Assembly (NCBI GenBank): GCA_015492645.1
Contig: WGER01000052.1
Coordinates: 9,974 to 73,973, forward strand
Direction of reading: 5' to 3'
Origin: Nitrospirota bacterium
GTDB lineage: Bacteria; Nitrospirota; Thermodesulfovibrionia; Thermodesulfovibrionales; JdFR-85
DNA: 64,000 nucleotides
Under the pieces are notes generated by a model that saw only the letters and a list, made by a program, of their open reading frames with translations, was not told the DNA's origin and did not search any database. Both the position numbers and the translations under genes were made by a program. Positions 2,211-12,655 of the stretch are shown here, piece by piece (positions within the stretch are counted from its first letter, which is position 1; each line of letters starts with the position of its first letter).

Positions 2211-3731
2211 ATGAAGAAGAGGAATCAACTGGCAGACCTTCGAAGGCTCATATCTCTTCCCCCGTCTCAGGTGAGAAGGTTCATACCTGAGTATCTCTAC
2301 GAGAGCCCCTCTACCCTGACAAAGTTGCTCTTTAAACTCATATATACAGAGAGGCTTACCAGGCAGAAGAGAGAGAACCTGGTTAATCTCACCAAATTTG
2401 TTCTTGACCAGTACTCCCCGAACCCGATACCAGAGTGGTTGCTCAGGGAACTGGAAGGGTTATTGCATACTGACAGACTGACAAAGGTTGACAAGGCGAT
2501 AATATTTTCGGCCTTTGACCCTGAGGAACTGCTACAGAAGGTGAAGGGGTTTGAGGAGTTCGTGAACGAGTTTATTGAGGTGAAGGGGTCCTTCAGAGAC
2601 TATCTTATTGAACAACTGGGTGAAAACCCATCATTGCTCAATGAGGTGTACCAGATTATAAAGGAGAAGTCTCATCCAGAGGGTGTCTTCTCCATGATTG
2701 AAGACCTTGCTGGCTCGGAGGAAACAAGCATCCTCAAGTTTCTTGAACTCTTTACGTACTATCCTGACAGGACCATAGCAGGTCACGCCCTCAGGGCGAT
2801 TGAGGCTGCTGCAAATCAGGAGGCTATAAAGAGACTGTATAGTATTTCCAGGCTAAACAGGAGATTTCAACAGGAGGCAGAGGAGGCATACATACACCTG
2901 ATGCATCAGTTGCCCATGCCAACGAGGGAGGAACTCAGCCTGCAGGGCAAATCTGATGGCAATTTCCTGGACCTGTGGGTCAGCCTTGTAGATGGAAATG
3001 GCGCTATGTCCACCTTTGTTGGGAAGAGGTTTGGTAGAAATAGATATTTTGCCTCATCAGTACTTATGAAGACGACCGACGGTGTGAAAGAGGTCCTTTT
3101 GATGTCAAACCTCCCCAGAGAGGGATACAGGGAACTGAAAGAGGCATATTTTTCAGATATCAACTTCTATCCTGTGAGTGAAGAGTATATGAAGAGGCTT
3201 TTAAAACACTTCCTGAAGATAAGCGAGAGAATGGGAAATCCTGTGCCTGTGGAGGTGGTGATCCTAAAAAACATCCTAAACTGGGACGACCTTGAACCTC
3301 AGGAATACACCTTTGGACTGCCTGAGACCCCAGATATCAAATACTATCCCAGGGACATCTTCCAGTTCCCGATTGATACATGGTGGATGCATGACGAGGT
3401 GATTTACGACATCCTCAGACCCTACAAGGGCAAGAAGGCATATGAAATACCGGACTCCGTCTTCTTCAGGGTGGTGGAGATATTTCTGGATTATGCCAGA
3501 GACCACCTGGTCCCCTTATGTGAACTCTGTGCAGACATAATAAGAAACTCCAACTACAGCAGACGGACACGCCTTTTCTCTCTGTTTCTCACCATCAAAA
3601 AGGAGATCCTCACCCTGCCTGTTACGGAGTATTACAGGTCACACTTCCTGAGTTATGGGGTGGTGGCGACCATTGAGAACACCCTGCATAATCTCAGTCT
3701 CGGAATAGGCACTCCGGAAGAGATTGAGTAA
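2211..3731 (+). CDS. hypothetical protein (506 aa, no recognisable domain)
   Basis: Long uninterrupted ORF starting 31 nt after the mnmG stop. Its 3' end overlaps the rsmG start by 8 nt. Predicted soluble, with no TM segment or catalytic motif recognised. Confidence 0.6.
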   Translation: MKKRNQLADLRRLISLPPSQVRRFIPEYLYESPSTLTKLLFKLIYTERLTRQKRENLVNLTKFVLDQYSPNPIPEWLLRELEGLLHTDRLTKVDKAIIFSAFDPEELLQKVKGFEEFVNEFIEVKGSFRDYLIEQLGENPSLLNEVYQIIKEKSHPEGVFSMIEDLAGSEETSILKFLELFTYYPDRTIAGHALRAIEAAANQEAIKRLYSISRLNRRFQQEAEEAYIHLMHQLPMPTREELSLQGKSDGNFLDLWVSLVDGNGAMSTFVGKRFGRNRYFASSVLMKTTDGVKEVLLMSNLPREGYRELKEAYFSDINFYPVSEEYMKRLLKHFLKISERMGNPVPVEVVILKNILNWDDLEPQEYTFGLPETPDIKYYPRDIFQFPIDTWWMHDEVIYDILRPYKGKKAYEIPDSVFFRVVEIFLDYARDHLVPLCELCADIIRNSNYSRRTRLFSLFLTIKKEILTLPVTEYYRSHFLSYGVVATIENTLHNLSLGIGTPEEIE

Positions 3732-4362
3732 GCAACTCAAATCCATTATCAGAGAGGCTGCAGAAGAGACCCCTATCGAGGTTTCTGAGGAGACGCTTCA
3801 ACTGTTTGAGAGATACTTCAATGAGATAAAGAGGTTCTCCAGGGCATATTCCCTTACTTCACTCGATACAGAGGAGGAATTTGCGATAAAAGGTATCCTG
3901 GACAGTCTACTGTATTTGATCTTCTTCCCTTCCTCTGCGGAGAAGGTCCTTGATGTGGGCAGTGGGGCAGGGCTACCTGGCCTTGTAATTAAGATAGCAC
4001 GTCCTGATTTGAAGGTCCATCTCATGGAACCCTCCAGAAAAAAGGCTGCATTTCTGAGACATATAATAACAAAGCTCCATCTCAGGGATGTGGATGTGAT
4101 AGAAGACACAATTGAGTCGTACAGCAAGACCTCTCCGGAGTGGTACGATATTCTGCTCACAAGGGCACTTTTCAGTGTAGGGGAGTTTATAAAAAAGGGA
4201 TTTCCCTTATTAAAAGAGGGAGGAATATTAATCATGAGTAAGGGGCCAGGGTATGAAAGGGAATTGAAAAGGCTGAAGACAGACAGACCTGTAGAGGTAC
4301 ATCCAGTGAGACTCCCAGTTGTTGGACTTCAGAGGTACTTTCTGATAGTACAAAATAATTAA
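3724..4362 (+). CDS. rsmG: 16S rRNA (guanine527-N7)-methyltransferase RsmG (GidB)
   Basis: 212-aa ORF with SAM-binding motif VLDVGSGAGLPGL and RsmG-like length. The start is a TTG at 3724 and is uncertain. Confidence 0.85.
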   Translation: MSKQLKSIIREAAEETPIEVSEETLQLFERYFNEIKRFSRAYSLTSLDTEEEFAIKGILDSLLYLIFFPSSAEKVLDVGSGAGLPGLVIKIARPDLKVHLMEPSRKKAAFLRHIITKLHLRDVDVIEDTIESYSKTSPEWYDILLTRALFSVGEFIKKGFPLLKEGGILIMSKGPGYERELKRLKTDRPVEVHPVRLPVVGLQRYFLIVQNN

Positions 4363-5588
4363 AACTCATATCTTATCTGAAGATAGAGATTGTCGTTTCT
4401 GTCGAGGCCTCCGAGCTGTCCCCATTCCTCCCCTCCTCCAAATACCATGGCACCGATGGAGGCCCAGATACGGTCAGAAAACCTGTATCTTATCTCTGGA
4501 TTGAGCAGGTAGTCTCCATCTGTGAGGCTCCAGAGGGAAAACCATCCGAGTTTCAGGTTCTGGTACATGAGCAACTGGGTGAGTCTTACCGCCAGGAGGT
4601 CAGAGTATCTCCTCGCCTCAGGCATTCCCTGAGGCAGGGTGCGGAGGTATTCAGAATAGTCATCCATATACTGTCCTGAGTACTGAATGGTGACAGTAAA
4701 GTCCCTCCAGAACTGCCTCTGATAGGTGAGAAGAAATCTGAGGGTGGAGTTCGGGATGAAGGGGTTGGTGCCAGCACGATCCTGCCTTGAGTCGTAATAG
4801 CCTGCCTCGATGCCTATCAGCCCGCCAAGTCCATTCAACTGCATAGAGGCACCGTACACATTGAGTTCAGGATAAAACAGGAGGAGGGATGTCCCCTCTG
4901 TCTTAACTGAGGGTGTCCTGTAAAAGCCCCTGTAGAGATAGAGCGCAATTTCAACTCCTGTGAGGTCCCTGTAAAACCTCAGGGCAAGTTCGGTGTTTTC
5001 AAGTGTTGCAGGTGGTTCCTCTTCCTTTATACCGGTCCCGCTAAGGGGATTGTAAAGGTGGAATCTTCTTGCTTCAGGCAGCCTGTTCGGTTCAAAAAAG
5101 GGTATTATGACAATATCCAGTGAGAAAGACTCAGGATAAACCCCTATCTTCAGGGCGTCCACCGGCCTTTTCATGTACTCCATGGGCCTGCCAGAGAAAA
5201 ATGCCTCATAGTCCTTCGGGAAGACGTCGTTAATAAAAACAAGGTCTCCGATCCCCCATGTGATTATCTGTCTTCCGGCCCTGAGGTCCCAGAGCATGGA
5301 TGAATAATCGATATAGGCCTCCCTGAACTCAACCTCTGCTTCTCTACAAATATGGTCATAATAGAGGTCTGTCTTTGAGAAGAACCTCAGGTCTGCTGAA
5401 AGGACCTCGATCTTCAGTTGCACCCTCTCCTCTGCCCATTTGAGGTCTCCACCGTCGGGATTACTGCCTGCCAGAGACATGGAATAATTGCCCTGCAGGA
5501 ACCCACCCAGAGAGAGGTCTATCTCCTCTGCTGTTGAGGTGAGTGGAGACAGCAGAATCAGGCACCCGATGATTAAAATCCTTAACAC
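4359..5588 (-). CDS. outer-membrane beta-barrel protein (porin-like), last gene of the sulfur/exporter cluster
   Basis: 409 aa with an N-terminal signal peptide (MLRILIIGCLILLSPLTSTA/EE) and an amphipathic beta-strand pattern. The C-terminal ...YLQIRYEF ends in Phe, a typical OMP signature. Its stop shares the palindromic TTAA with the convergent rsmG stop. Confidence 0.6.
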   Translation of the reverse strand: MLRILIIGCLILLSPLTSTAEEIDLSLGGFLQGNYSMSLAGSNPDGGDLKWAEERVQLKIEVLSADLRFFSKTDLYYDHICREAEVEFREAYIDYSSMLWDLRAGRQIITWGIGDLVFINDVFPKDYEAFFSGRPMEYMKRPVDALKIGVYPESFSLDIVIIPFFEPNRLPEARRFHLYNPLSGTGIKEEEPPATLENTELALRFYRDLTGVEIALYLYRGFYRTPSVKTEGTSLLLFYPELNVYGASMQLNGLGGLIGIEAGYYDSRQDRAGTNPFIPNSTLRFLLTYQRQFWRDFTVTIQYSGQYMDDYSEYLRTLPQGMPEARRYSDLLAVRLTQLLMYQNLKLGWFSLWSLTDGDYLLNPEIRYRFSDRIWASIGAMVFGGGEEWGQLGGLDRNDNLYLQIRYEF

Positions 5589-5604
5589 TTTCAGAAGGTT
5601 GAGA

Positions 5605-6390
5605 CTACCTCAGGAGACTTCTCGGAGGTCTCCGGAGGAACCTCTCTGTGAAGATGCCCTCTTCAAGTCCGATATTGTATTTGACCTCCTCGAAGGAGAC
5701 CTCTGTCCTGTGGCCGCTCTGGAGGTTTCTCATGGTCCTTCTCACCACTGTCGGGTAGCCCTGTATATTCTTTACCTCGTCAGCAGTGAATACCTTGTAG
5801 ACCTTACCGGTGTGGTTGTAGTACTCAATCTTAAGGGGGAGGTAGGTCTTCTCGGATATCCAGGAAATTCGATAGGAATAGGGCATATCCTCCTTCCTGG
5901 GGATGCTCTTTATCACAAGACAGTTCTCCCCTTTAAGGACCTCCTTTCTCAGGAGTTGGTGTTCGTCTTCATCAATATCCCTTCCGGAGACATCCTCATA
6001 GGTGAAGTCAGAACCCACAAAACTGGAGGCCCTGTCCCTTGCCGCAATCCTTTTGACCATATTAAGGGCAGGGATGAATAGCCATCGGTCATCGTCCCTG
6101 TCAGGGTACTTGTGGACCATAAAGGTCATACCCTTCACATCAGGTGGCTCATGAAAGTAGATGTAATAAAACTGTCTTCCACCATCCGTGACATCCCTTC
6201 TCAGCATCGTGAGGACCCTCCTTCTTTCGGCACCGGAAGATGAAATGAGACGCATTGTGACCTTCACCTTCATGTCATCCGCCTGATAGAGGAAGGCATT
6301 CTGTGACCTCCTCATGATCTCTTTTGCATCCTCGGAGTAGACATATGAAGACAGTGTGAGGACCATTAAAAGAACTACCAGGTGTTTCAT
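5605..6390 (-). CDS. LolA-like 'outer-membrane lipoprotein-sorting' family periplasmic protein
   Basis: 261 aa with a signal peptide (MKHLVVLLMVLTLSSYVYS). The FVGSDFTYEDV motif and size are typical of the LolA-fold partner of COG1033/MMPL exporters. ATGA overlap with the upstream MMPL stop. Confidence 0.75.
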   Translation of the reverse strand: MKHLVVLLMVLTLSSYVYSEDAKEIMRRSQNAFLYQADDMKVKVTMRLISSSGAERRRVLTMLRRDVTDGGRQFYYIYFHEPPDVKGMTFMVHKYPDRDDDRWLFIPALNMVKRIAARDRASSFVGSDFTYEDVSGRDIDEDEHQLLRKEVLKGENCLVIKSIPRKEDMPYSYRISWISEKTYLPLKIEYYNHTGKVYKVFTADEVKNIQGYPTVVRRTMRNLQSGHRTEVSFEEVKYNIGLEEGIFTERFLRRPPRSLLR

Positions 6391-8666
6391 GATTGACCTC
6401 CCCTGAAGAGTCTTTCCCTGAAGGTGACAATGAGTGCAGGCAGGAAGAAGAGTGTCGTCATGCCTGCAAAAAATGCAAGTGAACCGAAGAACAGCCCCAC
6501 AGTGACATAGGGGGTGAGGGTGGAGAGGACCAAGGGCAGAAATCCCAGTCCTACAACAATGGCGTTTCTGGCTATTGCCACAGAAGGCTCACCCTTTGTG
6601 ACCCACTGGATGGCCTGGTGGAAATCACCCCTCTGTTTCAGACCTCCCCTCAATCGCTGGCAGAAGTGTATGGCAAAGTCGATGCCAAGGCCAAGGGTGA
6701 GGGTTGAGCATACAGCAATCGGCATATCATAGTCTTTACCACCAAAACCTATCAGGCCGTAACTGAAGATTATGGAAAAACTGAGGGGCAGTATCGCCAC
6801 AACTGCCCACCAGACGGACCTGAATAGAACCACGAGCAACAGAAAGACCACCCAGTAGGAACCCACGGTAGCCTTTAGCATACCCTTTACCATCATATCC
6901 TGCCAGATGATGTTCAGATAGGGCAGTCCAGACCATTTCATTGTTATCCCTTCTGGCAGGGGGTTTTCCTCCACGAACTCCTCTACTGCCTTTACTACAG
7001 CAGACATGTCGCGATTGTCCCCTGAACGCATCTGGACCCAGAGGTTCGCCTTACGATAATCGTAGGTCACGAGGTTGTCCAGTTCATCAGGATCAGAGGA
7101 CATGAGGAAGAGGAAGAGGTACTGTCCAATGGTTCTTCTGTCATCAGGTATACTCTCAAATTGTGGATCCCCATCGTGCAGGACATAGTTTATCCTCTTA
7201 ACAACATCGGCCACTGAGGTGGTCTTTCCAACAAGATGATGACTCTCGAGATACCTCTGAAGGGAGTCAATGTATTTGAGGACCTCTGGAGATTTCATCC
7301 TCTCTGATTCGTTGCTCTCAAATACGAGATAAGAGATGTAGGTGCCTCCAATAATCCTGTTCAACACCCTGTCTGCCACTCTCAGGGGATGGTGTTCCTT
7401 GAACCACTTTACCGGGTTGTCGTTGACCCTTAACCGAAGGATCCCAAAGATTGCCACCAGAAGCAGAACCACTCCAATAACCACAACCGCCTTCCCCTTT
7501 GCAAGGGATACATCGGCCATCAGCGCAAGGACCCTGCTCCTGGAGGTCTTTGTTTCAATCCCCTTCAGACTCCTCTCTTTCAACAGGACCAGAAAGGCAG
7601 GGATGAAGGTTATGGTAAGGAGCCACGCAGCCATCACGCCAAAGGCCACAAAGAGACCGAATACCCTTACAGGTGGAATCTTTGCCCAGGCGAGGTTTGC
7701 AAATCCGACTGCGGTGGTCAGTGATGTGTAGAGCATGGGCTTGAAGAGTGAAGTGTAGACATCCTTTATAACAGAGTCTCTGTCATGTCCACGGTAGTTT
7801 TCATAGAAGTCACTTAATACATGCACACTATCACAGACAGCGATGGGCATGAGAAACACCGGTATCATTGAGGACATGATGTGTACCTTCAGTCCGAGCC
7901 ATATCATCGCCCCCATACTCCAGAGAACTGACAGCATGGCGACCACCATTGCTGGTACCACAAGCAGTACCCTCCGAAACAACAACCAGAGGAGGAGCAT
8001 CAGAAGGCCACCTGCCAGTGGTGCAACTACAGCCATCTCCTTGAACATCTCTGCACCGAAGGTATCTTCTGCAAGTGGAAGCCCTGCCATATAGAACCTT
8101 TCAGGGCCTTCCAGGGGCCTGTAGAGTTTCTTGATCCTTTCTGCCACCTCATGGGCTACATCCTTGTCCACAATGGGCACGTATATGGCAGTGCCTTTGC
8201 CATCAGAGGATACCAGTCTGTCCCTGAAGAGTGGATTGTCCATCACCTCTTTCTTGAGGAGGACAATCTCCTCTTCTTTTGAGGGGACCCTTTCAAGGGG
8301 CGGCCTTACCTCAAGGAGTCCTGCCCTGGATATCACATTGTTCGTTGCAGACAGACTCATTACATCCTCTGCAACCACTCCTTCTATTGTCATTATCTCA
8401 TCTGTAAGGGTCTTGATCTTTCTGAGGCTCCCTTTATTGAATATCCCCCTCTCATTGACCATACCAAGGACGATCATCTCCTCTATCCCGAACTCCTTTT
8501 TCACCTGTCTGTGGAATACCCTGACAGGTTCGTCCTGTGAGAGCATGTTTTCAGGGTCAGTGTCTATCTTCATTGTCGGCATGGATGAGACAAGAAGGAT
8601 GGTAAGGAAGATGGTGAGGGCAATCGTCAGTTTTGGATATCTGAGGGCCAGTCTTACAAGGCTCAT
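6387..8666 (-). CDS. MMPL/RND-superfamily exporter (COG1033-type, HpnN-like topology)
   Basis: 759 aa. Two repeats, each a large soluble loop followed by a cluster of hydrophobic helices, about 12 TM in total. The SD GAGGAG lies in the 8-nt spacer after the sqr-like stop. Confidence 0.85.
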   Translation of the reverse strand: MSLVRLALRYPKLTIALTIFLTILLVSSMPTMKIDTDPENMLSQDEPVRVFHRQVKKEFGIEEMIVLGMVNERGIFNKGSLRKIKTLTDEIMTIEGVVAEDVMSLSATNNVISRAGLLEVRPPLERVPSKEEEIVLLKKEVMDNPLFRDRLVSSDGKGTAIYVPIVDKDVAHEVAERIKKLYRPLEGPERFYMAGLPLAEDTFGAEMFKEMAVVAPLAGGLLMLLLWLLFRRVLLVVPAMVVAMLSVLWSMGAMIWLGLKVHIMSSMIPVFLMPIAVCDSVHVLSDFYENYRGHDRDSVIKDVYTSLFKPMLYTSLTTAVGFANLAWAKIPPVRVFGLFVAFGVMAAWLLTITFIPAFLVLLKERSLKGIETKTSRSRVLALMADVSLAKGKAVVVIGVVLLLVAIFGILRLRVNDNPVKWFKEHHPLRVADRVLNRIIGGTYISYLVFESNESERMKSPEVLKYIDSLQRYLESHHLVGKTTSVADVVKRINYVLHDGDPQFESIPDDRRTIGQYLFLFLMSSDPDELDNLVTYDYRKANLWVQMRSGDNRDMSAVVKAVEEFVEENPLPEGITMKWSGLPYLNIIWQDMMVKGMLKATVGSYWVVFLLLVVLFRSVWWAVVAILPLSFSIIFSYGLIGFGGKDYDMPIAVCSTLTLGLGIDFAIHFCQRLRGGLKQRGDFHQAIQWVTKGEPSVAIARNAIVVGLGFLPLVLSTLTPYVTVGLFFGSLAFFAGMTTLFFLPALIVTFRERLFRGGQS

Positions 8667-8674
8667 TGCTCCTC

Positions 8675-9868
8675 CTATGGCAGTTGCGTCAGGCCATGTC
8701 TGATCTTCCAGAGGTAATACCTCTCAAAGGCCGCCTTGAGCCATCGATACTGGATGCCTGCCTTGAGAAGGGCCTTCTGTCTTGGTGGAACCACTGGCTT
8801 TGCAACCATCAATGCAGCCGTGTTGCCCATGTCCATGAGACATACAGCACCGAGGGGTTCCGGTTCAGGAGGGCTCTTTCCGAGGACCTCTGAGGCTATC
8901 GTCTTTGCCGCCACCTTTGCCATCTCCACTGTCATATAGCCCGTCTTTGGCAGACCTGTGGGCACGGGTGTCTTCTCCGGAGGTGCCATTGCTACAGCCA
9001 CTCCAACTGAGAAGATATTTTTATGCACTATGTGCCTGTAATGCTGGTCAACCGGTATAAAGCCCTTTTCATTGCCGAGGTGGGCCACAGCCTTCACCCC
9101 TGCCATCGGAGGTGCAAACATGGCCAGCCTGAAGGGTAACCTTGTGCCGTCCTTGAGCCTCACCTCCTCCGGGGTGAACTCCTCAACCGCAACATTCGGT
9201 ATCGCCTTGATATCTCTGGCGGCAAACTCATCCTCCATGATCCGTCTTGATCTGCCGAGCCCTCCGATGCCGAAGTGGCCAATATAGGGTTCAGAGGTTA
9301 TGAATATGATGGGGACTTTATGCCTCATTTTTCTCCTCCTGAGTTCTGCATCCACCTCAAAGGCATACTCGTAGGGAGGACCAAAACAACTCACCCCCTG
9401 CACAGAGCCCACCAGCAATGGGCCGGGTTCTTCAAGGAACCTCTGCCATGCCTTATGACACCTGATCGCCTGCTCAAGGGTAAAGATACATTCTGTGTGG
9501 CCCTTCTCAGGTCCAAACCCTGGTACAGCATCAAAGACAAGGGCAGGGCCCGTGGCGATAACCAGATAATCGTAACCAATCTCTGTGCCATCCCTGAGTG
9601 CCACCCTCGATGAGTCAGGATCAACACCTACTGCCTCCTGATTTACAAATCCTATCCCCCTCTTCCTCAATATCCCTTCAAGGGGAAGGGTTATCTCCTC
9701 TGGCCTCTTCCATCCCATCGAAACCCATGGCAGGGAGGGGATAAAGACAAACCTGTTCTGGTCGCACACAACGGTTATATCTGCCCCCTGTCCAAGGTGT
9801 CTGCGGAGTTCAAAGGCAGTGGTAAGCCCTCCAAAGGACCCCCCGAGGATCACAACCCTGGTTGCCAT
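8675..9868 (-). CDS. sqr: sulfide:quinone oxidoreductase-like FAD-dependent pyridine nucleotide-disulfide oxidoreductase
   Basis: 397 aa. N-terminal Rossmann motif VVILGGSFGG. Cys residues in GVSCFGPPYE and GAVCLMDMG sit near the positions of the conserved SQR redox cysteines (about 160 and 356). Confidence 0.8.
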   Translation of the reverse strand: MATRVVILGGSFGGLTTAFELRRHLGQGADITVVCDQNRFVFIPSLPWVSMGWKRPEEITLPLEGILRKRGIGFVNQEAVGVDPDSSRVALRDGTEIGYDYLVIATGPALVFDAVPGFGPEKGHTECIFTLEQAIRCHKAWQRFLEEPGPLLVGSVQGVSCFGPPYEYAFEVDAELRRRKMRHKVPIIFITSEPYIGHFGIGGLGRSRRIMEDEFAARDIKAIPNVAVEEFTPEEVRLKDGTRLPFRLAMFAPPMAGVKAVAHLGNEKGFIPVDQHYRHIVHKNIFSVGVAVAMAPPEKTPVPTGLPKTGYMTVEMAKVAAKTIASEVLGKSPPEPEPLGAVCLMDMGNTAALMVAKPVVPPRQKALLKAGIQYRWLKAAFERYYLWKIRHGLTQLP

Positions 9869-9896
9869 CGTTACCTCCCCTTACTCATTCATTTAT

Positions 9897-10178
9897 TTAG
9901 AACAGGCCCACAACCTGATCCTCGTCCACCATCAGGTCAACCAGATCCATATAGTCTATCTCTTTTATATCCCTGGCGATATCAGCCTCTTTTAACCCCC
10001 TCATACGGGCATCTTCTCTAAGTAGATAGACTGTGCCACAGAAGCCTTCAAGCCTTTCTGGTTGTGCAAAATACACACCGTTCTGTAGCAGGCATATATC
10101 AGCAGCCATATCCCTTGCGAGTTTGAACCCCCTCCTGCCTTCAGGCGTATCAGGTGCGCTCTTTATAAGTACCAGCAT
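9897..10178 (-). CDS. dsrH: DsrH/TusB-like sulfur-relay protein
   Basis: 93 aa. Motifs LLQNGV, VYLLREDARMRGL and IDYMDLVDL...VVGLF parallel E. coli TusB (LLQDGV, VYALNEDLIARGL, IDYTDFV). Stop-SD-start junction with dsrF (TGA GGAGGT CAGA ATG). Confidence 0.75.
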   Translation of the reverse strand: MLVLIKSAPDTPEGRRGFKLARDMAADICLLQNGVYFAQPERLEGFCGTVYLLREDARMRGLKEADIARDIKEIDYMDLVDLMVDEDQVVGLF

Positions 10179-10188
10179 TCTGACCTCC

Positions 10189-10542
10189 TCAGAATATCAT
10201 TACGGTATCAGAGTCTTTGATAATCTCTGCGACCTCGTAACTGTTGGCGATGCTAACGCCTTCAATCAACTCCTCTGTCTCCAGGTGTTCCTCCTTCATT
10301 GAGGACTTATCCACCACCACCTCTACCCCCATCTCTATACAGTCCCTTATCCCATTTTCGATACTCTGATACTCCGTTCCCTCAACATCCTGCCCTTTCC
10401 TGGCTGCCTGAATACCTCCATCCACCAGTACAAGCCTTACGGTCATATCCTCCGTCACCCCTCCGAGGGCATGGCGGATCGCCTCTGCTGCATCTACAGT
10501 CCCGTAGGGAGGTCGCCTCAGTATTATGCTTATACTTCCCAT
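10189..10542 (-). CDS. dsrF: DsrF/TusC-like sulfur-relay protein
   Basis: 117 aa. PPYGT...EA..HALGG, LVLVDGGI and the C-terminal ...DTVMIF are typical of the DsrF/TusC family. It is preceded by TAA AGGAGGG CACC ATG, where TAA is the stop of the read-through dsrE frame. Confidence 0.75.
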   Translation of the reverse strand: MGSISIILRRPPYGTVDAAEAIRHALGGVTEDMTVRLVLVDGGIQAARKGQDVEGTEYQSIENGIRDCIEMGVEVVVDKSSMKEEHLETEELIEGVSIANSYEVAEIIKDSDTVMIF

Positions 10543-10553
10543 GGTGCCCTCCT

Positions 10554-10895
10554 TTATGTACCAAAGTTTAAAAAGATGGGCCCTGTCTTGATCACATTGT
10601 AAAGTCCTTTAAGGGAACTCATCTCACCTGCCAGGGCGTCCTCAGCCGCAAGACCGCGGCTCTTCATGCATCCAGTTCATATGTCAACCTTGAGTCCCCT
10701 TGATACAAGGTCCTCCAGGGCCTCTTCTGACTGAGGGACCTGACCCTTTACAATGGTGAACACACCGTCTCCTGACGCCACGAGCCTCACCCTGTGTCCC
10801 TTTTTCAGGGCAGCATCAGCCAGTTTAATAATGGTGTGAGTATTCTCGAAACTATAGGGAGTGGTTGTCAGAAACATTACAATCTCCCTTTCCAT
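10554..10895 (-). CDS. dsrE: DsrE/TusD-like sulfurtransferase, predicted selenoprotein (UGA at 10679-10677 read as Sec; U-x-x-C)
   Basis: Start ATG at 10895 with SD GGGGGAGGTG 4 nt upstream. The ORF-track product stops at TGA 10677-10679, but the frame stays open for 40 more codons to TAA 10554-10556. The read-through protein (113 aa) contains ...KVDI-U-TGCMKSRGL..., which aligns with the TusD/DsrE active-site box (NICVAAALRRGV). A SECIS-like hairpin lies 15 nt downstream of the UGA. Confidence 0.7.
10644..10661 (-). promoter_or_regulatory. candidate bacterial SECIS hairpin (AGCCGC-GGUCUU-GCGGCU)
   Basis: Perfect 6-bp stem with a GGUCUU loop, starting 15 nt 3' of the in-frame UGA. The GGUCU loop resembles the E. 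coli fdhF SECIS apical loop. Confidence 0.55.
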
Positions 10896-10927
10896 GAGAC
10901 ACCTCCCCCAAGAAAATTTCAAGAAGG

Positions 10928-11269
10928 TCAATGCCTTCTTTTACCGGGATATCTTCCCTTCTTGGTAACAGGACAGCAGGCAGGTGGTGGAAGTTGCTCT
11001 GGATAATCTCTCTTCAATACATGCAGAAGATCTGGTATAATTGGGTCCACAAGGTAATAGCACCTGAGCCGTCCATCCATGTAATAATCTATTAGACCGT
11101 AACGCCTTAACAGTGAGAGATGCTGTGATACGTTGGACTGCGGTATCTCCAAGAACTCCTCCAGATCGCTCACACACTTCACACCCTTTGTGAGTTCCTC
11201 AAGTATCTGGAGCCTCACTGGATGGCCCAGCACCCTGAGAAGTTCTGCCTGCGCACCTAATGGTCTCAT
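10928..11269 (-). CDS. ArsR/SmtB-family transcriptional regulator (possible SqrR/BigR-like persulfide sensor)
   Basis: 113 aa with a winged-helix signature HPVRLQILEEL...VKCVSDLEEFLEIPQSNVSQHLSLLRRYGLI. Cysteines at 32, 70, 98 and 99. First gene of the sulfur cluster. Confidence 0.85.
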   Translation of the reverse strand: MRPLGAQAELLRVLGHPVRLQILEELTKGVKCVSDLEEFLEIPQSNVSQHLSLLRRYGLIDYYMDGRLRCYYLVDPIIPDLLHVLKRDYPEQLPPPACCPVTKKGRYPGKRRH

Positions 11270-11277
11270 ATATTAGA

Positions 11278-11306
11278 ATATTATCATATTTTAATCTAAA
11301 TGTCAA
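11278..11306 (-). promoter_or_regulatory. candidate sigma70 promoter of the ArsR-led operon (TTGACA-17-TAATAT), apparently leaderless
   Basis: On the minus strand, TTGACA (11306-11301), a 17-nt spacer, then TAATAT (11283-11278). The ATG at 11269 lies only 8 nt after the -10 and no SD is present. An AT-rich imperfect inverted repeat TAGA-N17-TCTA overlaps the promoter. Confidence 0.35.
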
Positions 11307-11438
11307 GTCTAACTGAAAAAACCCAGATTTGCCGATAGAAATAGTTGTTTTTGGGGAGGAACTCCATGTTTTACGGACGAGATTTTGATCTAAAATGGAA
11401 ACTGTGAAGAAGGTCTAAAATTCGATACTTCCCGACAG

Positions 11439-11468
11439 TTGACATGACAAATGGGTATATTGTTAAAT
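11439..11468 (+). promoter_or_regulatory. candidate promoter for tRNA-Ala (TTGACA-18-TTAAAT)
   Basis: TTGACA at 11439-11444 and TTAAAT at 11463-11468, 12 nt before the mature tRNA 5' end. Confidence 0.3.
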
Positions 11469-11480
11469 AAGAAACAGGTA

Positions 11481-11556
11481 GGGGCTGTAGCTCAGATGGG
11501 AGAGCGCGTGAATGGCATTCACGAGGTCGGGGGTTCGACTCCCCTCAGCTCCACCA
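11481..11556 (+). tRNA. tRNA-Ala (anticodon GGC), CCA encoded
   Basis: Hand-folded cloverleaf. Acceptor GGGGCUG/CAGCUCC contains the G3:U70 alanine identity pair. D arm GCUC-AGAUGGGA-GAGC. Anticodon stem CGUGA/UCACG with loop AU-GGC-AU. T arm GGGGG-UUCGACU-CCCCU. 3' ACCA. Confidence 0.95.
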
Positions 11557-12655
11557 TCTCTCTGAATCTCCTGAACAGATGCCTTGAGTCATTGGGGCCT
11601 GGTCCCGCTTCAGGATGATATTGTACTGAAAAGATAGGTAACTCCACATGTCTCATCCCCTCTTCGGTTCCATCATACAGGTTTCTATGGGTCAAGACTA
11701 CCTGTCCCTTCAGACTTTCGATATCCACACAGTAATTATGGTTCTGAGAGGTGATCTCCACATGCCCTGTTTCCAGATCCATTACAGGGTGGTTTCCACC
11801 ATGATGGCCAAACTTTAGCTTGTATGTCCTGCCTCCCATGGCAAGTCCGAGTATCTGATGCCCTAAACAGATCCCGAACAGTGGTACCTTTCCGATGAGT
11901 CTCTTTGTGTTTTCAATTCCGTATCTCACCGCCTCGGGATTCCCTGGACCATTACTGAGAAGTACTCCATCCGGCTGTATCTCAAGTACTGCCTCTGCTG
12001 GGGTGGTGGCAGGCAGTACAGTCACCCTGAATCCAGCGTCCCTCAAACACCTGAGGATACTCAGTTTCACTCCAAAATCATATACCACCACATGGGGGGC
12101 CTCTATGCTGGTCTCTTCTGGTTCAGGCCACCTCCATAGCCCCTCAACCCAGTGAAAGGGGCTCTGGGTGGTCACCTCACTGACAAGATCCATCTCACCT
12201 ATGCCTGGATGGTCCTTTATCTTGCTGTAGAGACTCTCAACAGAAAGGTCTACAGTGGATAGTATACCCATCTGAGAACCAAAGGTCCTCAGATGCCTGG
12301 TAAGTGCTCTTGTGTCAATGCCCTGTATGGCGGGGATACCGTATTCCTTGAGATATTCTCCAAGGGGCCTTTCAGACCTCCAGTTGCTTGGATACTCCGT
12401 GTACTCCTTCACAATAAACCCTTCAACCTTCGGACCACCTCTTGACTCTATGTCCTCTTCATTCACCCCATAATTGCCTATCTCTGTATAGGTCATTACC
12501 ACCATCTGGCCCTTGTAGGAGGGGTCGGTCAGGATCTCCTGGTAGCCCGTGATGGAGGTGTTGAAGACAACTTCACCGATCCTCTCTCCCTCTGCTCCGA
12601 AGGACGTTCCCTCAAAGACAAGACCGTCCTGTAAAACAAGAATCGCTTTCTTCAT
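11519..12655 (-). CDS. carA: carbamoyl-phosphate synthase small (glutaminase) subunit
   Basis: 378 aa. N-terminus [21 protein letters not shown]...[24 protein letters not shown]. Glutamine amidotransferase triad region GICLGHQ. The last 38 nt run antisense through tRNA-Ala. Confidence 0.9.

Follow-up and report, generated by a model that had tools for sequence, protein, structure and literature searches.

How insoluble, membrane-philic elemental sulfur passes into or out of diderm cells is an old open question in sulfur microbiology, relevant to extracellular sulfur globules, to sulfide detoxification and to the disproportionation of elemental sulfur (S0). The question is raised by a gene cluster of a Nitrospirota bacterium (contig WGER01000052.1), in which the gene of a sulfide:quinone oxidoreductase (SQR) is followed by three genes of a predicted envelope exporter, namely an RND-superfamily pump, a periplasmic LolA-like protein and an outer-membrane beta-barrel (hereafter the trio). 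Upstream of sqr stand the genes of an ArsR/SmtB-family repressor and of three proteins resembling DsrE, DsrF and DsrH, the first of them a predicted selenoprotein. The cluster was analyzed within a stretch of 64,000 nt (the window), on the numbering of which all coordinates are given. Does the trio remove the sulfur that SQR makes? Envelope export of zero-valent sulfur is our hypothesis, and it is backed by comparative genomics; the full model, in which one repressor-controlled unit or regulon would deal with sulfide and the zero-valent sulfur derived from it, the trio exporting the sulfur, stands in our judgement at about even chances.

Operon layout, recurrence and a common predicted operator

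The cluster consists of eight consecutive open reading frames (ORFs; 4359-11269), all on the minus strand. An earlier note on the same DNA had described eight minus-strand genes in the order regulator, selenocysteine (Sec)-containing DsrE, DsrF, DsrH, SQR, MMPL pump, LolA-like protein and barrel. All eight ORFs were found at their places, and both their order and their identities were borne out by Pfam and NCBIfam profile searches with the eight proteins. The junctions, likewise as described, measure +32, +11, +10, +28, +8, -4 (an ATGA overlap) and +16 nt, and the single-operon layout holds. Purine runs resembling Shine-Dalgarno sequences occur in five spacers (GGGGGAGG, AGGAGG, GGAGG, GGGGAGG and GAGGAG, the last within the 8 nt between sqr and the MMPL gene); the spacer between the LolA-like and barrel genes is without such a run, and the barrel gene starts with GTG.

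A predicted sigma-70-type promoter (11278-11306, minus strand) precedes arsR, with a -35 hexamer TTGACA (11306-11301), a 17-nt spacer and an extended -10 element TG-TAATAT (11283-11278). It was the only promoter-like sequence noticed in the earlier note, and in a scan of 3900-11700 it is the sole 10/12 match. The scan gave nine promoter-like sites, for a chance expectation of 7.3 ± 2.9, and as candidate internal promoters it returned just 9/12 matches, at the chance rate. Upstream regions of orthologous arsR genes have the same layout of TTGACA and an AT-rich -10. Since the arsR ATG lies 9 nt past the -10 element, the arsR transcript should be leaderless or nearly so. The ATG stands directly behind the -10/operator in about a dozen orthologues as well, and other orthologues have 40-90-nt leaders with GGAGG.

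The arrangement recurs. One genome per species (GTDB) was scanned with an SQR alignment, which gave 80 loci, nearly all labelled Nitrospirota, and the presence of the other genes was determined by tblastn with the eight window proteins; 66 loci have enough upstream DNA, 63 have at least 3 kb and 45 at least 9 kb of downstream DNA. Adjacent dsrE, dsrF and dsrH genes, in conserved domain order, lie upstream of sqr in 62 of 66 loci, and an arsR orthologue (counted at ≥50% identity) is present in 61 of 66. MMPL follows sqr on the same strand in 33 of 63 loci, the complete trio was found in 19 of 45, and three additional loci have the LolA-like and/or barrel gene upstream of arsR or sqr. The nearest homologues belong to metagenome-assembled genomes (MAGs) of Nitrospirota/Thermodesulfovibrionia. 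A recurrence of sqr/dsrEFH beside MMPL, LolA-like and barrel genes, which the earlier note had proposed to look for, is thus found in other genomes.

These comparative data contradict a chance adjacency, in which two unrelated operons would simply abut in this genome, and we consider that explanation to be very improbable. It can appeal to the many relatives in which the sqr and MMPL halves lie 0.4-1.3 kb apart, in some cases with intervening genes such as a second arsR paralogue. Against it speak the same-strand adjacency in 33 of 63 loci together with the three loci of different gene order, the occurrence of the trio beside other SQR lineages (see below), the short window spacer with its Shine-Dalgarno sequence, and a predicted operator common to the two halves.

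This operator-like element is a 22-bp dyad (11273-11294, no strand assigned), TTAAAATAT-GATA-ATATTCTAA, which overlaps the -10 element of the arsR promoter and is single in the 64 kb of the window, where 0.01 would be expected. The family consensus is TGCAAATAT-N4-ATATTTGCA; it spans the promoter spacer and -10 in arsR orthologues, and its arms covary among orthologous promoters (ACAT/ATGT vs. ATAT/ATAT; GCAAACAT/ATGTTTGC vs. GCAAATAT/ATATTTGC). The dyad was counted 55 times in 2.19 Mb of loci and about once in locally shuffled sequence, and 52 of the 55 copies lie within 160 nt upstream of a start codon: 35 before an arsR orthologue, 7 before dsrE, 9 before MMPL and 1 before an arsR paralogue. 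The seven dsrE-proximal copies belong to genomes where selD/tauE separates dsrE from arsR, and the nine MMPL-proximal copies (P = 1.4e-10 for the excess) to genomes where MMPL stands apart from sqr. In split operons each part has thus retained the operator, and in the window the parts are fused behind one copy. The common predicted operator argues for a single regulon of the arsR, dsrE and MMPL units.

A second ArsR paralogue (30-48% identical to that of the window) often lies directly upstream of DrsE_2/MMPL (L018, L024, L025, L053, L056 and L073, and many MMPL-anchored loci: L099, L111, L121, L122, L128, L130, L137, L142 and L158), and it could share the dyad site. A subset of these paralogues, unlike the window regulator, has conserved Cys in helix alpha1 and near the C-terminus.

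The window regulator (10928-11269, minus strand; 113 aa) meets the cut-offs of the ArsR/SmtB family (HTH_5 PF01022, 51.4 bits with a cut-off of 22; NF033788, 76.8 with a cut-off of 55) and scores 24.4 on PRK10141 (cut-off 97). The earlier note had read VKCVSDL with C32, a Ser at position 34 and a C98-C99 pair, all of which are there; C70 is present as well. The four Cys are 100% conserved in 59 orthologues, with C32 (GVKCVSD) in the first helix of the helix-turn-helix, C70 (RLxCY) in the wing and C98-C99 (P-x-C-C-P) at the C-terminal end.

The note had also referred to the persulfide sensors SqrR and BigR. An assignment of the regulator to them fails: their Cys arrangement is absent, the Cys lying elsewhere, and the score on the BigR model NF040642 is 42.6 bits vs. 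a cut-off of 155. The protein is far under the cut-off on the CmtR, PagR and TsoR models too, its HPVRLQILEEL helix has no invariant Cys, and its similarity to SqrR, BigR and ArsR structures is weak, with C98-C99 not alignable to the A. ferrooxidans ArsR site. Given the genes that it appears to control, it is nevertheless reasonable to suppose that it works like the SqrR/BigR sensors.

At its borders the cluster meets a convergent rsmG (3724-4362, plus strand) downstream and, beyond the promoter, a plus-strand tRNA-Ala gene upstream. The latter, tRNA-Ala(GGC) at 11481-11556, overlaps in antisense the last dozen codons of a carA-like ORF (11519-12655, minus strand). An Rfam search of the window gave two tRNAs and nothing else. 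Judged from N-terminal sequences, the remaining window reads as housekeeping (tRNA synthetases, Rnf-like membrane genes, gyrA-like and clpB-like genes), with no island signature seen.

Sulfide oxidation and the predicted exporter trio

The product of sqr (8675-9868, minus strand; 397 aa; Pyr_redox_2, 66.8 bits) resembles type I SQRs over its full length. It matches Aquifex aeolicus SQR (3HYV) with E=5.8e-104 over residues 1-392, including the C-terminal amphipathic membrane-binding region, and A. ferrooxidans SQR over the full length with E about 1e-93. The catalytic Cys pair is matched, C161 (SCFGPPYE) and C343 (CLMDMG) aligning with Aquifex C156 and C347, and both residues are, like C127, invariant across 20 clade members. 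Judged by these alignments, the flavoprotein is a genuine SQR relative. In 2009, Marcia et al. reportedly saw polysulfur or S8 species at the active site in the Aquifex SQR crystal structure.

The trio begins with an MMPL/HAE3-like inner-membrane transporter of the RND superfamily (6387-8666, minus strand; 759 aa), which passes the Pfam MMPL cut-off (PF03176, 126.9 bits). Its top NCBIfam match, TIGR00921 HAE3, reaches 228 bits, under the cut-off of 351.9, and its similarity to PDB structures is weak, to MmpL4/5 and SecD. Identity with better known carriers was rejected on score: 103.8 vs. 751.85 and 37.6 vs. 1100 for HpnN, 35.4 vs. 1400 for BstA, and 134.2 vs. 874.7 for the actII/MMPL model. 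The earlier note had likened the exporter to hopanoid and mycobacterial MMPL systems; it turns out to be closer to a compact HAE3 relative of the DUF1302/DUF1329/RND (AmeABCD) type.

The periplasmic LolA-like protein (5605-6390, minus strand; 261 aa) matches PF17131 with 213.8 bits and DUF1329 in part (37.1 bits). Its N-terminus, MKHLVVLLMVLTLSSYVYSED, reads as a signal peptide without lipobox Cys, and its PDB matches are 'outer membrane lipoprotein-sorting' structures (9TP6, 1.6e-39; 3BK5, 1.2e-34; 4Z48, 3.3e-27). The last gene (4359-5588, minus strand) encodes a DUF1302 outer-membrane beta-barrel of 409 aa (PF06980, 27.9 bits with a cut-off of 23.2) with a signal peptide and the C-terminal end ...RYEF. 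Its AlphaFold2 model is all-beta (pLDDT 75, pTM 0.70), and the top PDB matches of the model in Foldseek are the porins OmpM1, OmpC and OmpF (probability 1.00, ~10% identity; TM-score 0.43-0.49 normalised to the query and 0.50-0.58 to the target). The prediction that pump, LolA-like protein and barrel together span the envelope is strongly supported.

What do such systems carry? The characterised relative, AmeABCD of Castellaniella defragrans (HAE3, DUF1302 and DUF1329), exports apolar monoterpenes (PMC6394551). DUF1302/DUF1329/BNR/RND genes cofit, and 'export of a cell wall component' has been proposed for them; in Pseudomonas, DUF1302/DUF1329 genes influence fitness when fatty esters are the substrate, and a function in catabolism or uptake has been read into this by some authors. 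A COG4447/BNR beta-propeller partner (AmeC) is absent from the window cluster and from the recurrent annotated neighbour families.

The company of the trio was surveyed in metagenome contigs anchored on MMPL, of which 59 loci have enough context for neighbour counts; ORFs of all loci were clustered, and recurrent families were annotated. In a background control none of 656 distant ORFs was labelled; as its labels derive from clusters near the anchors, this control is biased, and it was not used as a statistic. MMPL, LolA-like and barrel genes form a conserved three-gene cassette (MMPL identity 41-76%), and just some copies of it adjoin a window-type sqr/dsrEFH. Other copies lie beside a third SQR lineage, 45% identical (L094/L095), or beside an A. 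ferrooxidans-type SQR (E=1e-166 to 3SZ0) with canonical Cys positions (L160, L161-L163, L166), and one has an FCSD/SQR-like flavoprotein downstream of the barrel (L154).

Sulfur-trafficking genes lie within three ORFs of MMPL in 26 of the 59 loci, an ArsR-type regulator is found in 21 and an extracytoplasmic-function (ECF) sigma/anti-sigma pair in 8; the link between sulfur genes and the trio is therefore frequent, and has been made repeatedly, without being obligate. Recurrent neighbours are DrsE_2 (27 copies, typically between sqr and MMPL), TauE and YeeE/YedE-type 'sulphur transport' proteins, together with ArsR-rhodanese fusions, cysteine desulfurase, HdrD-like Fe-S/CCG proteins, YgaP-like, OsmC, DsbD, C_GCAxxG_C_C and CoA-binding proteins, SelD and an S-adenosylmethionine (SAM) methyltransferase. 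In a Desulfobacterales MAG, the trio adjoins arsR, rhodanese, DsbD-thioredoxin and dsrC genes. The earlier note had asked whether the adjacency might be confined to this genome and whether the trio elsewhere goes with lipid genes; the adjacency recurs, the trio keeps sulfur-trafficking company, and no lipid-biosynthesis genes are among its annotated neighbours.

It is conceivable that the trio is co-regulated with SQR while its cargo is not sulfur. It would then serve envelope maintenance or general efflux of hydrophobes (an outer-membrane lipid, quinone-like compounds or toxic apolar organics) and be induced along with SQR in reactive-sulfur or envelope stress. The relatives characterised so far all move organic hydrophobes or a component of the envelope, as the monoterpenes of AmeABCD and the cell-wall proposal illustrate; many trio loci have no sulfur gene within three ORFs, the eight headed by ECF sigma/anti-sigma pairs are of a kind typical of envelope stress, and FA_hydroxylase genes recur nearby. 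Several points count against such a role: the trio stands repeatedly and independently beside at least three lineages of sulfide-oxidising flavoproteins and beside DsrE-family carriers, it shares its predicted operator with dsrE and arsR, its slot after sqr is often taken by YeeE/TauE-type transporters when it is missing, and lipid-synthesis genes are wanting among the annotated neighbours. We hold this explanation to be unlikely, though far from negligible.

An inward-working trio is a further alternative. Barrel and LolA-like carrier would bring extracellular S0 to the inner membrane for disproportionation or reduction, and SQR and the DsrEFH-like proteins would act on the imported sulfur. 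The uptake reading of the Pseudomonas fitness effects and the porin-like model of the barrel are compatible with this. All RND-superfamily pumps characterised so far are proton-driven exporters, export is also the behaviour seen for AmeABCD, and SQR makes S0 and does not consume it, so that we give import little credence.

Several observations on the cassette touch on sulfur export. In L005, L026, L028 and L035, which are without the trio, sqr is followed by split YeeE/YedE genes and/or a long TauE-family gene, usually in the slot of the trio, an arrangement in keeping with a slot for a transporter of sulfur compounds. Clusters c62-c65 (with the ABC ATPase c11) past the barrel were considered as an alternative exporter and rejected, as their annotated members are transketolase halves, FtsX and an M23 peptidase, hence ordinary chromosomal synteny.

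A SAM methyltransferase (DVU_1556-like, with sub-threshold ArsM and UbiE matches) is found inside some exporter cassettes, either between SQR and MMPL (L160-L163, L166) or past the LolA-like gene and ahead of any barrel (L052, L056, L064, L132). This embedded gene is a hint of a methylated cargo in some lineages. In two deltaproteobacterial MAGs, the cassette of SQR, methyltransferase and trio lies beside phage-derived genes (L161; 1-1560 and 11699-12187) or beside arsR-LMWPc-SBF and czc-type RND resistance genes (L166; 866-2700 and 11380-18227), which suggests that it moves between genomes as a stress-resistance module. Two MMPL lineages, moreover, occur on the same SQR lineage, the L013-L068 class being 58-76% and the L001-L006/L081-L085 class 41-46% identical to the window pump, and the LolA-like and barrel partners of both are mostly 50-66% identical; apparently the pump gene either was swapped for another or diverges more quickly than the two partner genes.

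A selenocysteine-containing DsrE and the question of selenium

The first gene after arsR (10554-10895, minus strand) encodes a DsrE/YchN-like protein of 113 aa (DsrE PF02635, 52.1 bits) with Sec as residue 73 in the motif U-T-G-C-x3-R-G. The Sec codon is an in-frame UGA at 10677-10679 (minus strand); past this TGA the translation continues (...GLKVDI*TGCMKSRGL...FGT) up to a TAA stop at 10556-10554. The call of a Sec-containing DsrE, made already in the earlier note, is upheld by homologues. TGA stands at the Sec position in 74 of 74 homologues with the U[TG]GC motif, two further homologues have an in-frame stop at the same position with U-G-[TS]-C, and the ~40 C-terminal residues past the in-frame stop are conserved in every related locus. 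TGA also serves as a genuine stop in arsR, dsrF and MMPL of the same operon. U73 aligns with the first Cys of CKTC-x3-RG in E. coli YchN, and C76 follows it.

Two DsrE subtypes can be told apart, VDI-U-TGCM..RG (71-81% identical to the window protein) and V[YD]L-U-GGC.N.R (36-47%). In the window a hairpin (10644-10661, minus strand) with a 7-bp stem and the loop GUCU lies at +19 to +36 from the U of the UGA. Both subtypes keep a hairpin at +19/20 to +35/36, with a loop of GUCU or GUGC that begins with GU almost always, and compensatory changes occur in its stem (pair 20-35, GC 13 and CG 11; pair 24-31, CG, TA or AT). This putative selenocysteine insertion sequence (SECIS) has the appearance of a bacterial SECIS; no Rfam family, SECIS included, matches it. 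None of the NCBIfam selenoprotein models matches the DsrE-like protein, and tRNA-Sec was not found in the window, where selA, selB and selD were not searched for. Taken together, the sequence evidence indicates that the DsrE-like gene is an obligate selenoprotein gene.

Its partners follow directly: a DsrF/TusC-like subunit (10189-10542, minus strand; 117 aa; PF02635, 57.9 bits) and a DsrH/TusB-like subunit (9897-10178, minus strand; 93 aa; PF04077, 40.2 bits). All three fall short of the TusD, TusC and TusB equivalog cut-offs (18.9 vs. 89; TIGR03010, 34.7 vs. 94; TIGR03011, 43.2 vs. 49.2). In a PDB search with the DsrE-like protein, the top matches, designer PPR repeats, were rejected as spurious, and just YchN (E=0.009-0.05) and DsrE (2HY5, E about 1) are meaningful.

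In public databases the gene is found in truncated form. The best 120 database matches all end at or shortly before the TGA (62-64% query coverage), and 108 of them are 72-aa products. Thermodesulfovibrionia have been said to 'possess dsrFH, but no dsrE' (PMC11033732, 2024). This missing dsrE is probably an unrecognised selenoprotein gene, and its absence an annotation artefact of the universal Sec codon. Metabolic inference from MAGs is affected, for dsrEFH serves there as a sulfur-oxidation marker.

Another explanation is that the cluster handles selenium or metalloids. ArsR would then be a sensor of As(III), Se or Te; selenide, selenopersulfide or thio-arsenic species would be processed by the flavoprotein and the complex of the Sec-containing DsrE; and hydrophobic metalloid products, methylated or elemental, would leave through the exporter, with the methyltransferase taking part in genomes that have it. 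A true selD (TIGR00476, 335 bits), usually followed by a TauE permease, lies between arsR and dsrE, or after the barrel or sqr, in about 15 loci (L014, L016, L023, L031, L042, L047, L049, L053, L059, L062, L068, L069, L077, L080, L127, L145). Such an insertion may simply serve to express the Sec pathway along with a selenoprotein; alternatively, it may be a pointer to a link with selenium. The DsrE domain of SelD-linked YedF carries a CGxC motif (PMC5322559), which the U-x-x-C of the DsrE-like protein resembles. YeeE/YedE relatives nearby match weakly the selenium YedE/FdhT and thiosulfate TsuA models, the methyltransferases have their sub-threshold ArsM matches, and the L166 cluster adjoins arsR-LMWPc-SBF genes and a czc-type RND system. 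A vicinal Cys pair with a third Cys is, furthermore, a hallmark of As(III)-sensing ArsRs, and the regulator has such a pair.

Set against these points, the flavoprotein is closely related, over its full length, to SQRs whose activity has been proven biochemically, the neighbours are mostly sulfur-relay families, the selD adjacency is a minority pattern for which co-expression of the Sec pathway with a Sec-dependent protein is a simple explanation, and there are no ars genes in the window or in most loci. Selenium or metalloid handling accordingly appears improbable to us.

Proposed pathway and comparison with known systems

Under the sulfur-export model, a dimer of the Cys-rich ArsR protein would sit on the dyad over the -10 element of a strong promoter and keep the operon, its own gene included, switched off, as the sequence of the promoter supports. 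A persulfide or polysulfide derived from sulfide may modify C32, C70 and C98-C99, upon which the repressor would leave. SQR, by strong homology a monotopic membrane flavoprotein, is expected to oxidise HS- and to pass the electrons to the quinone pool; a sulfane chain would grow on its Cys pair until polysulfide or S8 is set free. The DsrE(Sec)-DsrF-DsrH proteins might load sulfane sulfur at U-x-x-C and pass it into cytoplasmic sulfur trafficking, Sec being a better nucleophile and leaving group than Cys, and the nearby Cys could resolve the Se-S adduct.

From the inner membrane or periplasm, the proton-driven HAE3/MMPL pump would take up the hydrophobic product, presented in the proposal as S8, long polysulfanes or, where the genome adds a SAM methyltransferase, methylated polysulfides, and hand it to the soluble LolA-like carrier, from which it would reach the DUF1302 barrel and the outside of the cell. 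Such export would avert a build-up of sulfur in the envelope. A cargo of S8 or polysulfanes is plausible; it is suggested by genomic context, and the export of hydrophobes by AmeABCD counts in its favour.

Several points weigh against this model. About half of the SQR/dsrEFH loci are without the trio, fewer than half of the MMPL loci have sulfur genes within three ORFs, and some MMPL-anchored loci are under ECF sigma/anti-sigma pairs instead. In the window SQR, F129 takes the place of the FAD-linking Cys (Aquifex C124, A. ferrooxidans C128), and C127 stands two residues ahead of that position. The regulator is without the SqrR/BigR Cys pair, and its Cys pattern is also As(III)-sensor-like; a part for selenium or metalloids would be compatible with the SelD/TauE insertions and the DVU_1556/ArsM-like methyltransferases. 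Finally, the DsrEFH-like proteins are cytoplasmic, the exporter works from membrane or periplasm, and SQR may face either side of the membrane, so that the two branches may serve different pools.

A more specific version, in which export of zero-valent sulfur (S8, long polysulfanes, methylated forms) would be the dedicated task of the trio, under a new Cys4 ArsR-family sensor of reactive sulfur and paired with an obligate-Sec DsrE relay, is offered tentatively, and we regard it as rather doubtful. If it is true, no molecular route for elemental sulfur across the diderm envelope would have been described before. The cluster is a compact, widely conserved and testable candidate for such a route; the Cys4 regulator with its predicted operator can be used for regulon prediction in other genomes, and a poorly understood pump family (HAE3/DUF1302/LolA-like) is linked to inorganic sulfur chemistry.

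Each part is of a known kind: an ArsR/SmtB repressor, a type-I-like SQR, a DsrE-like selenoprotein and an HAE3 RND system with DUF1302 and LolA-superfamily partners. In a literature search outside which most subscription journals lay, we found no description of a conserved, co-regulated union of SQR and exporter, of the Cys4 regulator with its operator, or of universal Sec in this Nitrospirota DsrE family, and queries on LolA-like proteins with RND/HAE3, on S0 export with RND and on TP0789 gave no described system.

Like SqrR of Rhodobacter capsulatus and BigR of Xylella, the regulator is a winged-helix ArsR/SmtB repressor with conserved Cys that heads an sqr operon behind a predicted dyad operator overlapping the promoter; its Cys are at other positions, and its predicted regulon adds the Sec-DsrEFH-like complex and the envelope exporter. 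With the type I SQRs (Aquifex 3HYV, A. ferrooxidans 3T2Y), the flavoprotein has in common the full-length alignment, the two catalytic Cys and the C-terminal membrane-binding region, whereas its third Cys is displaced by two residues and its clade is so far almost confined to MAGs labelled Nitrospirota.

With the DsrEFH/TusBCD complexes, among them DsrEFH type II (PMC13293266, 2026), and with E. coli YchN, the window set shares three consecutive small genes of the DsrE, DsrE and DsrH kinds, a conserved active-site position and, in some genomes, synteny with yeeE-type genes. The type II paper reports a conserved Cys and does not mention Sec (PMC13293266). In contrast to DsrEFH/TusBCD, the window complex has Sec in U-x-x-C at its active site and is tied to sqr instead of dsrAB or tusA. 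From two Sargasso Sea sequences, without genomic context, Zhang, Fomenko and Gladyshev defined in 2005 a UXXC family of DsrE-like selenoproteins (PMC1088965). It shares with the window protein the DsrE fold, Sec in UXXC and a downstream bacterial SECIS hairpin; in the Nitrospirota proteins, by comparison, Sec is universal in two subtypes, lies inside a conserved operon and is unannotated in public databases.

The exporter resembles HpnN (hopanoid), BstABC (sterol) and mycobacterial MmpL as RND carriers of very hydrophobic cargo toward the outer envelope, yet its pump is far under each family cut-off. Its closest likeness is to AmeABCD and to the Pseudomonas/Shewanella sets of DUF1302/DUF1329/BNR/COG1033-RND genes, which combine an HAE3-type pump, a DUF1302 barrel and a LolA-superfamily periplasmic protein. 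Compared with AmeABCD, the window cluster is without a BNR partner, its periplasmic protein is of the PF17131 type with 261 aa vs. 451, and its barrel has 409 aa vs. about 600. Unlike the AmeABCD-type sets, moreover, it is found in the context of sulfide oxidation, not of terpene or fatty-ester metabolism.

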